A DNA stretch of 64,000 nt, taken from Botryllus schlosseri (Eukaryota). Position numbers and translations under genes: made by a program. The DNA is taken from contig CM119371.1 in the NCBI GenBank assembly GCA_051294905.1, forward strand, positions 34,350,001-34,414,000, written 5' to 3'. The notes under the pieces were generated by a model that was given only the letters and a program-made list of their open reading frames with translations, had not been told where the DNA came from and did not search any database. Positions 12,207 to 53,746 of this stretch are shown piece after piece. Each line of letters begins with the position of its first letter. Position 1 is the first letter of the stretch.

Positions 12207-12674
12207 TAGTAGGGTATGCAGAGTAAACATTTACTCAATCCCTCTGCTTGCCAATCCTCGGCTCCATTGCGTTGAGCTTTGCGCCCAAGTACATAATTAC
12301 ATCTTGTTGAAGTTGGGGGGAGGGTGGGATGTTGACTGGGGCGGATATATATATATATATATATATATCGTAGTTTTGTGTTTATTACACGCCTCCTGGA
12401 CGAATGATATAGCAAGGAACGAGAAGCAGCTTTAACACGAATGGTTTTGATTGCAAAAAGGTCCGCGAAATTTTGTTGCTTATCAAAACGTTTGTGGAAG
12501 TGTGGAACGTATAGACATGCAAAATTTACGTGTCACACATTCGTAACACTGAAGTCAAGCTTCTGTTTGTACAATCCTCCGGTAGTACGCCCACTGGCAC
12601 TGAGCCTATGATGGCGTAAGAGAAGTTTTTAAATGTTTATGTATTATGTATAATTGTATAGTCTCCATATCCCC

Positions 12675-12685
12675 GGGACTTCCCC
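12675..12685 (+). promoter_or_regulatory. NF-kB/Rel consensus site GGGACTTCCCC upstream of E2 paralogue 1
   Basis: Matches GGGRNNYYCC; about 103 bp upstream of the ATG; equivalent sites precede the other two paralogues. Confidence 0.7.
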
Positions 12686-12787
12686 GCGTAGATATCTGAA
12701 ACAGCAGATTGCAGCAGCCTAACAGCAAATTGAAGGAACTAGAACAAGTATCTGCTAGCGATGTCGGTCTACTAAGCTAATTGTGAT

Positions 12788-13333
12788 ATGGCTTTAAAGA
12801 GGTTGCAGTACGAATACAAAAAATTTACAGAAGAGCCGATAAATTCTGCCATTCGAGCAGGACCAGTCGACGATATCGACCTGTATCGGTGGTGGGCTAC
12901 CATCGGAGGACCGGAAGGAACGCCGTATCAAGGCGGCCTGTTTCGAATTCTGATAGATTATCCAACGGAATATCCTTTTAAGCCGCCGAAAATGCGATTT
13001 GAAACGAAAATATTTCATCCAAATGTCAGCCGGAAAGGGACTATATGTGTAGATATTTTGCAAAAGCAATGGTCGCCAGCGCTTACGACATCGAAGGTCC
13101 TGTTGTCCATATGCTCCTTGCTTGCTTCGCCCAATCCAGACGACCCGATGGACCCGGAGAGTGCGACCCTGTATATAGAAAACCCCAGGGAGTACGCCAA
13201 ACGGGCGAAGCAATGGACCGAAATGTATGCCATGGATACCACCGCCCTTAAAAGTAGAGCCCACTCAACGGTGCCGAGATGTTCACCACCAGGGCAGTCC
13301 TTTTCAACTGATGCTCGTATTGAGTCTGTCTAA
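12788..13333 (+). CDS. Ubiquitin-conjugating enzyme E2, UBE2D/Ubc4-5-like, intronless paralogue 1 (181 aa)
   Basis: Complete UBC fold: MALKR start, YPFKPP, HPN motif, catalytic Cys87 (codon 13046-13048) in HPNVSRKGTICVDIL, WSPAL, SKVLLSICSLL, PNPDDP, ending ..WTEMYAM. Followed by a 32-aa C-terminal tail. No introns. Confidence 0.95.
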   Translation: MALKRLQYEYKKFTEEPINSAIRAGPVDDIDLYRWWATIGGPEGTPYQGGLFRILIDYPTEYPFKPPKMRFETKIFHPNVSRKGTICVDILQKQWSPALTTSKVLLSICSLLASPNPDDPMDPESATLYIENPREYAKRAKQWTEMYAMDTTALKSRAHSTVPRCSPPGQSFSTDARIESV

Positions 13334-13456
13334 TTGAGGTGAGGATAAGAAAGATACAGTAAATGTACTTAAGAAGATGATAGTTCTTGATCACTGATTA
13401 TTATGCGCAAGGTTTCCTGCGACTCTCTTTGATACGGTGTAACCATTGGTGATTAG

Positions 13457-14275
13457 TAGGGCGGTTTTTTTTTTACCTAAAAAACAGAAAATTTTGACCT
13501 AAAAAATCAAAATTTTGACTTTTTTTGACCTAAAAAAACTGAATTTTGACCAAATTTTGACCTAACGTATGCAAATTAGGTGTTTTCCCAAATAATGGTA
13601 AAATTGTACCGGTTATCTACATTTCCGGTTGTAACTGGCTGTCCCAACGAAGTAGTTTGGCCTGAAAAAACGTTTTTGGCTTAGAAACAGGCAACTTTGT
13701 ACATATAAAAAACAATATTTTAACGAAATCTGGCTCTATGAAGAATTCCAGTGGTTGCAATACGTATTATGGCGGAAATAATTAAAAAAAAATTGTAGTA
13801 CAACGAGAGATACTTTCCTATATTCTTGTGTAAAAAGTGCATGTCCTTACTTGCCAAGGACGTTCAACAGCAGCAGTTGGCTGACAACACTCAAGTTGTG
13901 CAATGTGCATACACTACTGGTGACGCAATATGTTGCTTCATTCTGACAATGTTGTCTATTACAATTTTTCATCATGCGCTTTTTCAATATAAGAATGATG
14001 CCCCAGTTAGGATATTGCGGTACGTTGACCATTGACCGTTGATGATTCAGTATGAGCAGACAATGCGCCGTTTACAACAGTAGGTATATAAAGTAGACTA
14101 CAAGCTGTAAAATATCAAATGATACGTTCACAGACACTGCAAAATCTACGATACAAACGAAATAAAGACGTAAAAAAATTTTGACTTTATGAACAATTTT
14201 GACAAATTTTGACCTAACGCTACAATTTTGACAAAATTTTGACAAATTTTGACAAGTCAAAAAAAAAACGCCCTA
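13457..14275. mobile_element. hAT-type MITE with AATTTTGAC subterminal repeats, 123 bp downstream of the paralogue 1 stop
   Basis: Ends TAGGGCG(G)TTTTTT / AAAAAACGCCCTA; perfect TSD GTGATTAG (13449-13456, 14276-14283). Confidence 0.9.
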
Positions 14276-17200
14276 GTGATTAGTGATTACAGTCAGTAAA
14301 CCTGTTCATCATCGAAATATACCGACCTTTCGAAATATGTGTTAATGGAGATTGGTCAAAGTTAAACTAAAGCACATTCGATGAGTAATGTAATGAGTTG
14401 GCGAACAAGTCATTCTCGATTGTAATATGACTTTAGCTCGGTTATAGTCCGCGGCGGCAATGTTGCATCTCCCAGCGTGCAAGAAATAATCAGGTATATG
14501 TCTCTTATATATAGCATTCCTTCAATAGTTGGCATAAATATGTAAGAATATATCTGTTGTAACTTCCTCTTTTTTCTTGTCAATCTATTGATTCTAATTA
14601 TAATGTCGAGCTAAGCGGCATATGAAACTCACGGCGATGTACTGGAAATATGAACTTATGAAAGTTATTAGGCTAATGAATATCACAAATTGACAAACGT
14701 CTGCGAACTGCAGTGTTTGCGATGTAAAATCAGTACACGTTAAGACGCATTTAATGATAATCATTGAAAAGTCGATAAAGGACATGGGATAATGGACAAA
14801 TGTACCCAACTATCTCGTATGCACCGCAAGTTTTGCAATCAAATCTTTTTCGATTGACTCAATTTGATATAAACTAGTTGAACATCAAGTTTCACATTGG
14901 ATTATACGTTCTCACACAGCATCCACATTATCGATTTTCTTCGGTTGGATTGCACCACATAGCTCGGTTGCTCAGTAACCATAACATGTTTATTTGAGTT
15001 CGTAACAGCGCGTATGTACTGGCCGAACAAGTGTGAGTTTGTTTGAAAGAGGATGCATACACTATTATGTGTTGATAGCACTTCTTACGGTCGTCCTATG
15101 TTTTGTTGTGAAATAATCTGGTTCGCGTTGTGATGGTGTAGGCCTAATATATGCGCTGGAACCGTGGGAAAATGTCTTCTGCAGAGGCGAGCATGTCAGG
15201 ATCATCGTTTGAGTGGTGGTTTATTGAAAAGTGAATGGATTTCGGCCATAGGAATGGCATTTTGGATCGATTGATGGATCGACATCTAGTTGCACACGTC
15301 TTTGGCAAGGTGCATTACTGTGGAAGTTGAAGACTGCATTTCGTTTTTCATGGACTGTGTTATTGGCGGGACTTGTGAATGCGTGGTATTCGTTGAAGGA
15401 AGACATTAAAAGAACGCTCCCGAATGAGGAATATGACAGTCGATCGGAATCATAGCGTGGAGTTCTTGAAGTTTGAAATGTAATTGCCATGATAGTCTAT
15501 GCTTCATATGTGCGCGCGTGTGAGCTTATAGTTGAATAGTATCCTCATGTGTGATGAGTTCGATATGGTTTTGTTCTGCCGGAAACGGTGGGGGGGGGGA
15601 CAATAATGCGAGATTCTGGGGTGAAAGTATTAGTGTTGTGCTGATTTGATGCAATCGTGCGAATGTAAGTAGTCTCCTACGGTGATGAATTAAAAGATAA
15701 TAACAATAATAATAGTACAACGATAAGTTGCTTCTTGATCTTCAGTTTTTTTTTTGGTTTTCTTCCCTCCACCACCAAACCAGCATTTGAGACATTTTCA
15801 GGCTAGAATCAAGCTCAGGTGTCACATTAACTAAATATGTATTCTAATAACTAAGTAATTTATTGGCTGTGTGTAGTATCGATATTATTTTATCATTCTG
15901 ACTACCGGTAACAATATAAATAAGTTGTACAATTAAAAAACGTTTTTAATTTTTCAACAGGTAGAAAAATATGGAGACCATTTAATTTTCAGAAAAAGGT
16001 GAGGATTCCTGGTTTAGATTCTGCTTTGTTTTAGATTGTGCGTTTCTCGATATGTGCCAAATTGTGCGTGGATGATTTAATGGGCAGTATTGGACACTTG
16101 TCAAGCTGAGTGGGAGGTCGATGTAGCCGCCCTGATTGCGACTGCTCCAGTTGCTTGTGTTGCAGATTACCCCCCGGTGTGCCCTACATAGGAATGTCTC
16201 GCCAAGTCCTGCTCGTCGCATGCCATGTGGTATTACGTTATAGTTATGGCGTTACTCAGTTTGCATGGTAGTATATAGTTAATCATTATTTGCCAAATCA
16301 TAAATCTTTGGTGGTTACCATGTTTAGAGTTACAGATTCCGTTGCTGGGCTGTAAATGGCACTGTATCTAAACATCAGTGCATCAAATTTTGTTGAAATC
16401 GTATTTAATTGCTAAATTTCCAGATTTTCCAGCAATCTTTGACTTTTGTGATAACCATTAACTAAAACACAACAATTAAACTATGTAACCTTCTCACTGT
16501 GTTACTGGAGTAGCGTTTATTATGTTGTAAACTTATCTCCTGCTGATAATTATCTTCTATCTAATAATTACTAACAAAGATGCAATTATGACGGAGGTTG
16601 ATGTAATTATTAGTTCGTTGGATTATCTAGATTGGTTCATGCTTACAGTAACGTAATCCAACTGAGATAATGATGATTTATATCACACATATGAGAATGA
16701 TGACGTACATGTTAAATACACGTCCATCATAATATTACTTTTATTATTACGATGAGTTATAATATAATGTTTTATTGCTTTTTTTCAAGCCTCAAGCAAG
16801 AACCAAGTATCATCTGTGCCTCGACTACGCTGTCTCATTCTCTTTTGCTGCATTGGGTAAAGATAGAATATAACACGGTATCTATGAAACAGATGGGGTT
16901 CCCTGAGCCAATCTAAGGGGTTAACTGTAGGTCAAGACACACACTCAACTCATACATATGATTTTTGATGATATGTCAATCTTAGTTGCAGGTTGCAGGT
17001 AATTAGACCCGATATGTAGTCAAAGTGTTACTATTGTGGTGGCATGTAGTGCGTCGTAAATGTCGTATACGCAGCGTAGGTCGGAGTTGGAAAGCCACCC
17101 CCGTCCTTCCATTCCTAAGCTCATTTGCAATTAAGCAATTGGTATAACGCTGTTGCGTTTCGACTGAACAATATGATGACACTTTCCAAGGTGAAGCCTC

Positions 17201-24942: not shown

Positions 24943-25399
24943 TAGGCTTACCATACGTCCTCTTTTAAGAGGATTTGTCCTCTTTTTTGACTTTTTTGAA
25001 AGTGTCCTCGGAGGACGCTCTTTTGTCCTCTTTTTTGAGATTTTGTCCTCTTTTTTGAAAATTGAGGTCAGATATAGAGGAAATTGCGAGTGATATGCCG
25101 CAAATTAGCGCAGAAGTGAAGCTCCGGCGGGTATTTCGGAGGAAAAGCGGTGATTTCAGCTCTGAGCGAAATGAAGACCTTTTTTTTTTTTTTTTTTTTT
25201 TTTTAGTCATCCACCTGGCAATGTAGAGTAAAAAACGTTATTTTGAGATCTGAGCGGAAGTGAAGACCTTTTTTTTTTAGTCAACCGACCGCAAAGTGGG
25301 ACAAATTCACCGGTTTTTGAGAATTCTACTCCGGTTTTGTATCTTGCAAATTTCTGAAAAAGTGTCCGCCTTTTGCATTTTCAAAATATGGTAAGCCTA
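24943..25399 (+). mobile_element. hAT (Tip100-like) MITE, TAGGCTTACCATA family
   Basis: 13-bp TIR TAGGCTTACCATA; TGTCCTC repeats; internal GAAGACC-poly(T) units; perfect TSD CTCTATAA. Confidence 0.9.
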
Positions 25400-25815: not shown

Positions 25816-26160
25816 TTGTATTGTATAGTATTAATGGGGCACAACACACTTGAGCTTATCGCCTTTTTAGGCCCTGCGTTCCACTATTGAAATTTCATAA
25901 TGTTCATGGGTTTTGATTTCTTATATTCTTGGGTGCGTCTTTCAGCCTCTCACGCAATCATTGTTCGGTCGCTCTCAGTCCCATGCGTCCGATCGTGGTC
26001 GTTACTCCAGACTTATAACTCGGCTCACTTTTCACGCCTGGGCTTTTCAACGCAATGCGGTTGCAGTGAGGTCGGCGATGAGGAGCCCAGATAAACCTCC
26101 GACAAGCAGAAGTTGATCAGATCCGAGATTCGAAACCGCTTCCATTGGTGTCGTGACGCC
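25816..26160 (-). mobile_element. tRNA-derived SINE (family I), degenerate
   Basis: Shares GGTCGGCRATGAGGAGCCCAGATAAACCTC and body with 41124-41427; B-box-like GGTTTCGAATC on the minus strand; boundaries approximate. Confidence 0.7.
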
Positions 26161-29704: not shown

Positions 29705-29715
29705 GGGGAACTCCC
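29705..29715 (+). promoter_or_regulatory. NF-kB/Rel consensus site GGGGAACTCCC upstream of E2 paralogue 2
   Basis: Matches GGGRNNYYCC; about 73 bp upstream of the ATG; TATA-like CATATATATAC at 29738-29748 lies between it and the ATG. Confidence 0.7.
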
Positions 29716-29787: not shown

Positions 29788-30309
29788 ATGGCTTTCAAGC
29801 GACTAAAGTACGAGTACAAGAAATTCCTGCAACAGCCTAGCAATTCTCCCATTAGAGCAGGACCGGTCGACGATTCAGATCTGTACCGGTGGTGGGCAAC
29901 AATCGAAGGACCTGAAGAAACGCCGTTCGCAGGCGGATTGTTTAAAATATTAATAGAATATTCAACGGAGTATCCGTTTAAACCGCCGAAAATGCGATTC
30001 GAGACTAAGATATTCCATCCCAATGTAAGCAGAAGAGGGACGATATGCGTAGACATTTTGCAAAAGCAATGGTCACCAGCGTTAACTACATCGAAAGTGC
30101 TTCTGTCAATATGTTCCTTACTGGCTTCTCCTAATCCGGACGACCCGATGGATGCAGAGAGTGCAGATTTGTACTTAAAAAATAGAGAATTGTATTTCGA
30201 ACAGGCCAAGCAATGGACGGAAATGTATGCCATCTCTCACACTACGCCTTGCAAGGGTAAAGTTCCGTTGCATACGGGCACATCACGAGACGCTATACAG
30301 GCCAATTGA
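29788..30309 (+). CDS. Ubiquitin-conjugating enzyme E2, UBE2D/Ubc4-5-like, intronless paralogue 2 (173 aa)
   Basis: Same UBC motifs (HPNVSRRGTICVDILQKQWSPAL, PNPDDP). Core protein near-identical to copies 1 and 3 with many synonymous differences; distinct C-terminal tail. Confidence 0.95.
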   Translation: MAFKRLKYEYKKFLQQPSNSPIRAGPVDDSDLYRWWATIEGPEETPFAGGLFKILIEYSTEYPFKPPKMRFETKIFHPNVSRRGTICVDILQKQWSPALTTSKVLLSICSLLASPNPDDPMDAESADLYLKNRELYFEQAKQWTEMYAISHTTPCKGKVPLHTGTSRDAIQAN

Positions 30310-53155: not shown

Positions 53156-53166
53156 GGGGAAGTCCC
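53156..53166 (+). promoter_or_regulatory. NF-kB/Rel consensus site GGGGAAGTCCC upstream of E2 paralogue 3
   Basis: Exact reverse complement of the copy-1 site; about 65 bp upstream of the ATG; CATATAT about 25 bp downstream of it. Confidence 0.7.
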
Positions 53167-53230: not shown

Positions 53231-53746
53231 ATGGCCTTCAAACGACTGCAGCATGAATATAAGAAGTTTCTGCAAGAATCCAGCAGTTCGCCTATCAGAG
53301 CAGGACCTCTCGATGACTCAGATATGTATCGCTGGTGGGCGACTATTGAAGGACCTGGAGGAACGCCGTTTGAAGGAGGAGTATTTCGAATCCTTATAGA
53401 CTACCCGACGGAATATCCTTTTAAACCGCCCAAAATGCGGTTCGACACCAAGATTTTTCATCCCAACGTAAGCAAACGAGGGACGATATGTGTTGACATT
53501 TTGCAGAAGCAATGGTCCCCAGCACTCACAACATCGAAAGTACTTTTATCTATATGTTCCTTGCTCGCTTCTCCAAATCCTGATGACCCTATGGATGTGG
53601 AGAGCGCCACTTTGTATTTGGATAATCCAGGACTGTATTTCAAGCGGGCAAAGCAGTGGACAGAAATGTACGCTATCGCCGATCCTACAAGTTGTAGCGC
53701 GAAGGTTGCAGTATCACAAGACAGTGTTGACCGGTCACGTAAATGA
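53231..53746 (+). CDS. Ubiquitin-conjugating enzyme E2, UBE2D/Ubc4-5-like, intronless paralogue 3 (171 aa)
   Basis: Same UBC motifs (HPNVSKRGTICVDILQKQWSPAL). Good start context (GCCATGG) and AATAAA at 54024-54029 downstream. Confidence 0.95.
   Translation: MAFKRLQHEYKKFLQESSSSPIRAGPLDDSDMYRWWATIEGPGGTPFEGGVFRILIDYPTEYPFKPPKMRFDTKIFHPNVSKRGTICVDILQKQWSPALTTSKVLLSICSLLASPNPDDPMDVESATLYLDNPGLYFKRAKQWTEMYAIADPTSCSAKVAVSQDSVDRSRK

Follow-up and report, generated by a model that had tools for sequence, protein, structure and literature searches.

The window, a stretch of 64,000 bases analysed as a whole (C1:34350001-34414000 of a 495 Mb assembly), holds three intronless genes for ubiquitin-conjugating enzymes (E2s), whose coordinates are collected with those of their associated features in Table 1. 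Each encodes a complete UBC domain (Pfam UQ_con, PF00179, E 1e-47 to 3e-49, profile positions 1-139 of 140), and full-length identity between the copies is 74%. In copy 1, residues 1-149 form the UBC core and residues 150-181 a tail. The HPN motif at residues 77-79 and Cys87 are invariant across copies 1-3, as are YPFKPP, WSPAL, SKVLLSICSLL and PDDP, in agreement with the first-pass annotation, which had described these motifs as intact. That annotation had also singled out an arginine before AGP in the IRAGP motif of three E2 paralogues, and residue 23 is indeed Arg in each. The count of three was correct in that all three genes are real, but incomplete, as the genome contains at least 78 genes of the family to which they belong. 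Within the window they are solitary chromosomal genes: no mobile-element genes were found nearby among ORFs of at least 75 aa, and no other Pfam domain was found in the 121 ORFs of this length at an E threshold of 0.001, a length limit that shorter exons would escape.

Table 1. Coordinates of the E2 genes and associated features, counted from the first base of the window
Feature	Position	Strand	Remarks
E2 copy 1	12788..13333	+	intronless CDS, 181 aa + stop; Pfam UQ_con E 2.8e-49
E2 copy 2	29788..30309	+	intronless CDS, 173 aa + stop
E2 copy 3	53231..53746	+	intronless CDS, 171 aa + stop
Arg23 codon, copy 1	12854..12856	+	CGA; equivalent to UBE2D Ser22
Arg23 codon, copy 2	29854..29856	+	AGA
Arg23 codon, copy 3	53297..53299	+	AGA
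kappaB-like motif GGGACTTCCC	12675..12684	+	113 bases 5' of copy 1 ATG; pattern search and positional scan
kappaB-like motif GGGGAACTCC/GGGAGTTCCC	29705..29715	both	two overlapping matches; 83 bases 5' of copy 2 ATG
kappaB-like motif GGGACTTCCC	53157..53166	-	74 bases 5' of copy 3 ATG
Approximate transcribed span, copy 1	12634..14535	+	from depth bins, not mapped ends

A 97% identical twin of copy 3 (L034) lies at C163:18500-19600, on a 23.7-kb unplaced contig, with a dN of 0.009 and a dS of 0.198 between the two. It derives either from the other haplotype or from a recent duplication of copy 3, and the divergence suggests high allelic divergence in the species.

Selection, transcription and promoter motifs

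In pairwise Nei-Gojobori comparisons over a 148-codon core of 12 array genes, dS was finite for 40 of the 66 pairs, and omega in these ranged from 0.021 to 0.241; the remaining 26 pairs were saturated. Between the window genes themselves, dN was 0.113 and dS 1.66 for copies 1 and 2, dN was 0.085 and dS 2.02 for copies 2 and 3, and dN was 0.100 for copies 1 and 3, where dS was saturated and could not be computed. The earlier observation that Arg is kept despite a change of codon is borne out by these values, the residue having been retained over a divergence that has saturated the synonymous sites between the copies. The Arg common to the three copies is inherited, and does not represent three independent events.

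Transcription was assessed in four raw RNA-seq runs from two studies carrying the same species label, the libraries of which look unstranded. In run X13, depth was approximately 7.2 in the bin covering the copy 1 CDS, falling to approximately 4.0 and 2.8 in the next bins and then to 0.5 or less, and approximately 6.3 in the copy 2 bin, with several intergenic bins at 0. The other three runs reached at most 1.9 over copy 1 and 1.3 over copy 2. Expression is low, clear in only one of the four runs, and patchy across them. At six sites in the copy 1 CDS, essentially every covering X13 read departs from the reference (11 of 12 at one site); read from the codons, five of these are synonymous third-position differences and one is D57E. 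The genes are under strong purifying selection and are transcribed. That they are dead retrocopies is scarcely credible: they are intronless, the window is gene-poor and related copies are found on retroelement-like units, but the reading frames are open, and omega values of 0.02-0.24 with saturated dS, together with the coverage of the genes by RNA reads, contradict any pseudogene reading.

Two other transcribed stretches lie in the window. Around 40 bases at 26062-26104 reach an RNA depth of approximately 170-290 in all four runs, with thousands of reads running into unrelated flanks, and are probably a short repeat common to many transcripts. Between copies 1 and 2, a transcribed repeat or small RNA-like unit occupies 24953-25313; its depth is approximately 100 in run X17 and 10-43 in the remaining runs, and small indels are present at 24982-24991.

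Alignment of the upstream regions revealed a recurring GGGnnnnnCC element, matching GGGRNWYYCC, which we take to be the kappaB consensus. This pattern has eight matches in the window, at six places, relative to an expectation of 2.53, and only one of 100 shuffles reached eight; three of the six places are those before the start codons of the E2 genes (Table 1). Across the E2 loci retrieved from the genome, the pattern occurs at -74 to -122 in 10 of the 14 I[R/K]AGP genes of the C1 subfamily, to which the window genes belong, and in none of 44 other E2 ORFs. The subfamily appears, from these motifs, to be switched on conditionally. The inducible role suggested by the first-pass annotation gains some support from the presence of kappaB-like motifs before all three start codons and from the patchy RNA, although the motifs are matches to a consensus only.

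The Ser22 site and the backside surface

The position of Arg23 can be placed through three lines of comparison. Firstly, HMMER pairs 'eepinsairagpvddidlyrw' of copy 1 with 'rdpp-aqcsagpvgd-dlfhw' of UBE2D1/2, setting Arg23 over Ser22, with one added residue in the alpha1-beta1 loop and another in the beta1-beta2 turn. Secondly, an AlphaFold2 model of copy 1, built from a 73-sequence alignment with a mean pLDDT of 87.1, has its first strand at residues 22-26, which include Arg23, followed by strands at 34-40, 51-57 and 68-71, with low confidence in the tail at 150-181. Thirdly, this model superposes on the UbcH5A/B/C structures with an rmsd of 1.3-1.7 Å over 147-149 columns and a target TM-score of up to 0.96. 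The assignment of Arg to the Ser22 site is corroborated by all three. Displacement of Arg23 by the upstream insertion can be rejected: the residue remains in register because it immediately precedes the invariant AGP of strand beta1.

Kinship to UBE2D is equally consistent. Among proteins of solved structure, the best matches are E2s of the UBE2D/Ubc4/5 type from human, worm and plant (E ~1e-53, 54-56% identity); the 60 PDB sequence matches listed comprise UBE2D1/2/3, worm ubc-2, plant UBC8 and one 'UBC core domain protein', and UbcH5 or its orthologues account for almost all of the best 50 Foldseek matches, which also include two UBE2E1 entries. In a phylogeny, the window genes are placed with UBE2D, rather than with Rad6, UBE2G or UBE2N. 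When the genome's own canonical UBE2D gene is used as the ruler, the equivalents of K4, F62, K63, N77, C85, D87, P95, A96, S108, N114 and D117 are conserved in copies 1-3 and, with few exceptions, across the family. The residues through which UBE2D contacts RING and U-box ligases are F62 and the P95-A96 of the SPA motif, in human numbering, and the equivalents of all three are present in copies 1-3 and nearly all family members.

The frequency of Arg at this site was surveyed in 328 close UBE2D-like proteins (120 + 147 + 61). Among the 120 best matches in a 90%-clustered collection, the motif was found in 118 proteins, with 124 occurrences: Ser in 110, Thr in four, Asn in one, Phe in one (a broken second repeat), Arg in six, Lys in one and Gln in one, with Arg, Lys and Gln restricted to the eight closest relatives of the query (P0007, P0009, P0010, P0011, P0013, P0014, P0017 and P0018). 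The sole named protein among these closest relatives is a Styela clava 'E2 D2-like' protein (P0014). A second set of 147 further representatives at 50% identity, with 146 motif occurrences, had Ser in 137, a single Arg (P0261) and a single Gln (P0267); the latter two appear to be gene-model artefacts, because the query match only starts there (query positions 23 and 22). In the third set, 61 further proteins found by a profile search with the clade, Ser occurred in 49 and Thr in 11, while Arg, Lys and Glu were seen solely in P0272, P0277, P0274 and P0275, which bear the clade's other hallmarks. Arg at the Ser22 site is exceptional. The objection that it might be common in ordinary Ubc4/5 orthologues fails because Ser is nearly invariant in ordinary UBE2D-like proteins across the three surveys, the exceptions belonging to the same clade. 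Neither a natural Arg at this site nor an E2 expansion in tunicates was found described in the literature, for which paywalled work, the original 2006 S22R study among it, was covered via citations only, and we know of no natural use of the Ser22 backside switch described so far.

The significance of the site comes from engineered proteins. In PMC6349121, backside ubiquitin is shown to bind the alpha1-beta1 loop and, around Ser22, the surface of strands beta1-3; D16, P17, P18 and Q20 of this loop mediate stimulation, with D16 and Q20 being needed, and S22R abolishes both backside ubiquitin binding and stimulation in human UbcH5B. PMC4996978 likewise describes S22R as blocking the binding of MUB by Arabidopsis UBC8. 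The first-pass annotation was correct in stating that the S22R mutant loses backside ubiquitin binding. The S22R substitution also cuts the overall activity of UbcH5B, according to PMC4605308, which means that the first-pass proposal of enzymes tuned to mono-ubiquitination or priming is not the sole reading. These lowered activities, the intact RING-contact residues and the kappaB-like promoter motifs would also suit competitive dampeners, the second idea of the first-pass annotation, which after induction would occupy shared RING E3s, transfer poorly and lower the output of canonical UBE2D. This is nevertheless very unlikely, as the catalytic residues are all under purifying selection, which a mere blocker would not need.

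Arg23 is one of many backside changes, rather than an isolated point substitution, and the whole backside is remodelled. The backside residues listed in PMC4996978 are D16, P17, P18, T19, S22, A23, Q34, A35, T36, M38, V49 and M147. At these positions the copies have E or Q at 16, P or S at 17, I or S at 18, an added loop residue, R at 22, W at 34, G or E at 38, L or V at 49, and M or I at 147 followed by a tail of 22-32 residues; only A23, A35 and T36 are kept throughout. Beyond this list, F51 is replaced by R or K, and H55 by D or E. From this pattern and the behaviour of the engineered proteins we infer, on good grounds, that backside ubiquitin binding would be lost.

The two parts of the backside differ in their variability among 12 genes of the C1 subfamily. 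Positions 18-21 of the alpha1-beta1 loop are hypervariable (1.4-2.05 bits), and the sheet backside has a mean entropy of 0.57 bits, relative to 0.45 bits for the rest of the protein, with conservative swaps only at its changed positions (R in eight and K in four; W in 10 of 12; E in 10 of 12; R in 10 and K in two; E in 10 and D in two). Hence the loop looks to have been released from its old job, and the sheet face to be constrained in a new state. The sheet surface is nearly as conserved as the rest of the protein, and fits a new partner as well as it does simple loss. It is possible, if on the unlikely side, that the backside has been re-purposed, with Arg/Lys23, Trp36, Glu40, Arg/Lys53 and Asp/Glu57 (window numbering) binding another partner, for instance a ubiquitin-like domain or part of a lineage-specific E3 outside its RING, in a manner that would resemble the use of the E2 backside by Rad18, AO7 and UHRF1. 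The conservative swaps favour this, but folding also constrains sheet residues, and the site itself varies between subfamilies (Arg, Lys, Gln, His or Glu), which leaves no single new interface shared by the clade as a whole.

An expanded family and its mobile carriers

A search of the window's own assembly for PF00179 returned 119 matches, approximately 90 of them full-length and without introns. The HPN..Cys pattern was present in 98 ORF rows, and 88 of these, all intronless, had a recognisable beta1 motif, in which the site residue was Gln in 33, Arg in 23, Lys in 18, Ser in eight, His in two, Glu in two, Val in one and Thr in one. There is a divergent clade of at least 78 intronless genes with Arg, Lys, Gln, His or Glu at the site, which is a counterpoint to any reading centred on Arg: the site is not fixed as Arg in the clade. 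The Ser ORFs comprise canonical UBE2D-like genes, in which the motif is CSAGP (two in L022, together with L024 and L025) or CSVEP (L029), and others, namely the UBE2E-like L030 (CSAGPKGDN) and two Rad6-like genes. Ordinary Ser22 enzymes have thus been retained in the genome.

In a maximum likelihood tree of 71 rows (quick IQ-TREE, LG+G4, with the fragments L005, L009 and L020 left out), the non-Ser genes and their public relatives formed one 56-row group (SH-aLRT 90), separate from the Ser/Thr UBE2D group (SH-aLRT 93). The window genes are part of a tandem array at approximately 34.12-34.41 Mb on C1, reading I[R/K]AGP...WWATI, and a second C1 array, of the ILQAGP type, lies at 34.46-34.49 Mb.

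The codons at the site are closely connected. Ser is encoded by AGY in the canonical genes, and the non-Ser codons in the fetched E2 loci are AGA (10), CGA (15), AAA (18), CAA (33), CAC (two) and GAA (two), the codons for Arg, Lys, Gln, His, Glu and Ser all being single-step neighbours. Among the 78 clade genes no reversion to Ser or another small residue was found, though AGA is one step from AGY. These data bear on the view that Arg is neutral and merely peculiar to the lineage, backside binding having become dispensable and the residue being without consequence in otherwise ordinary, redundant Ubc4/5-type E2s. The interchange of five residues at the site through single base steps, and the hypervariable alpha1-beta1 loop, are what this would lead one to expect. 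We regard it as unlikely, however, given the near invariance of Ser across eukaryotic UBE2D-like proteins, the absence of any return to a small residue in those 78 genes, and the retention alongside them of canonical Ser22 UBE2D genes, which argues for a division of labour.

Several other features of the family were observed. The third base is A in 78 of the 80 non-Ser site codons (the exceptions being the two CAC), despite synonymous saturation elsewhere, and AGG, AAG, CAG and CGN other than CGA are not found among the site codons of the fetched E2 loci. Longer C-terminal tails with a common hydrophobic stretch, FSLFCVPVEYLTP..., which is absent from window copies 1-3, occur in L003, L006 and L009 (C1 34.14-34.26 Mb) and in the public protein P0007; this may be a membrane or partner-binding tail. 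The older C1 array members L003, L006, L007 and L008 have altered equivalents of N114 and/or D117 (SPDLDNPMD, APDADNLLD, APNAENLTD), both of which are present in window copies 1-3, and the members so altered may be catalytically weakened. The genome also contains a polyubiquitin gene (L071-L074, C16:10604695-10606962), with ten head-to-tail ubiquitin repeats in one open frame of 763 aa.

The dispersed E2 subfamilies have a different setting, being near-identical copies within long repeats. TIKAGP-type repeats have 6.4-6.7 kb in common at 97.7-99.97% identity, and IRAGPFDE-type repeats 6.6 kb at 98.1-99.4%, and for ILQAGP-type repeats two comparisons out of three extend over approximately 10 kb at 94-99%, the third consisting of pieces at 88-92%. 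Further genes in these repeats specify a Bcl-2 family protein (E 9e-20), a protein with a caspase domain (E 1e-12), and an IAP in which three BIR domains are combined with a RING (E 4e-59). In L061 (C2:36466500-36476499) a divergent-clade E2 adjoins a Bcl-2 family gene (L061:3797-4315), and in L064 (C3:8210200-8220199) another adjoins a caspase-domain gene (L064:3302-4072); both repeat families are 97.7-99.97% identical between chromosomes over 6.4-6.7 kb.

The Gln subfamily E2 is carried by a unit of at least 24.5 kb on C5 (L115/L067/L116, C5:19570100-19594636), with a 97-99% identical copy on C14 (L117/L068/L118). All of its ORFs of at least 150 aa are on one strand, and encode an LRR protein, an IS1595-type DDE domain, an IAP (three BIR domains and a RING; L067:1359-3098), the E2, and several proteins of no family, with a 1205-aa ORF at the right end containing reverse transcriptase, RNase H and Tpt1/KptA domains. 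No internal repeats of at least 80 bases were found in the 30 kb examined, which included the right end of the unit. It resembles a giant, retroelement-like vehicle for cell-death genes of host type. The location of an IAP gene a few kb from a sister-subfamily E2 on the same element is a further point in favour of a re-purposed backside.

Functional reading and comparison with known E2s

We consider it somewhat better than an even chance, with a probability of roughly 0.55, that the copies are functional, RING-competent E2s of an expanded, UBE2D-derived clade of tunicate type, in which the backside has been rebuilt and canonical backside binding is likely gone. A lineage-specific and greatly expanded clade would have arisen from UBE2D (UbcH5, Ubc4/5) in a tunicate-type genome, retaining all that is needed for charging by E1 and for the discharge of ubiquitin with RING E3s. 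The rear face that holds a second ubiquitin would have been rebuilt early in the clade. Firstly, Ser22 could have become Arg through a single base step, from AGY to AGA. Secondly, the alpha1-beta1 loop, the transmitter of the backside ubiquitin effect, would have gained a residue and become free to vary. Thirdly, neighbouring sheet positions would have changed (Q34W, M38E/G, F51R/K, H55D/E). The likeliest outcome is that neither ubiquitin nor a ubiquitin-like domain would occupy the canonical backside; such enzymes would then lack stimulation by backside ubiquitin, build chains less processively, and be blind to regulators that bind the backside.

The window subfamily would be turned on conditionally through its kappaB-like promoter motifs, and sister subfamilies travel on large mobile elements beside genes for IAP (a BIR-RING E3), Bcl-2 and caspase proteins, neighbours that would place the function of these E2s in cell-death and immune signalling. 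A wider extrapolation is rather unlikely: that this is a family of around 80 E2 genes without the backside switch, part of it host-resident and wired to Rel/NF-kappaB and part of it co-mobilised on giant retroelement-like units with the genes for IAP RING ligases, Bcl-2 proteins and caspases, acting as dedicated partners or decoys of IAP ligases in a cell-death contest between host and element, in which the rebuilt backside would confer immunity to backside-binding regulators of the rival.

The interest of the family lies in the standing of Ser22 of UbcH5 as the standard test-tube handle for switching off backside ubiquitin binding. This genome contains dozens of natural variants at the site (Arg, Lys, Gln, His, Glu), in enzymes that are otherwise intact, beside canonical Ser22 genes, providing a ready-made series for asking what purpose backside binding serves in vivo. 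The kappaB-like promoters and the elements carrying IAP, Bcl-2 and caspase genes suggest a role in immune or cell-death signalling, and the family demonstrates that E2 genes can be amplified as the cargo of mobile elements.

Among known systems, the window genes are most similar to UBE2D1-4, UbcH5 and yeast Ubc4/5, to which they are close in sequence and in predicted structure, and with which they share the HPN-Cys active site, the SPA motif, the F62 RING contact, the crossover helix and PDDP. They differ from UBE2D1-4 in the replacement of Ser22 by Arg, in an alpha1-beta1 loop that is one residue longer and not conserved, in D42G/E and D112S in addition to the sheet changes listed above, and in a C-terminal tail of 22-32 residues, of low predicted confidence, that runs past the end of UBE2D.

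UBE2E family enzymes (UbcM2/UBE2E3) are restricted to mono-ubiquitination by features outside the active site, their output being limited by an N-terminal extension. They share a UBE2D-related core with the window genes, which lack such an extension, whereas the UBE2E-like ORF of this genome retains Ser at the site. Large DNA viruses also carry E2 genes, as in the case of the African swine fever virus E2. The sister subfamilies are similarly carried, along with IAP and Bcl-2-type genes, by mobile or virus-like units present in multiple copies, whereas the three genes of the window are solitary and chromosomal, and the sister carrier encodes reverse transcriptase and RNase H.

The closest parallel at the site itself is provided by UbcH5 S22R, AtUBC8 S22R and Rad6 S25R, in which the same change was engineered at the same structural site. 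In the papers describing these proteins (PMC6349121, PMC4996978, PMC4605308), the change is known from human, yeast (Rad6 S25R) and Arabidopsis proteins only, and is accompanied by the loss of non-covalent ubiquitin or MUB binding and by lowered polyubiquitination. By comparison, the Arg of the window genes is natural and ancient, is accompanied by many other changes to the backside, and has sister genes that hold Lys, Gln, His or Glu in its place.
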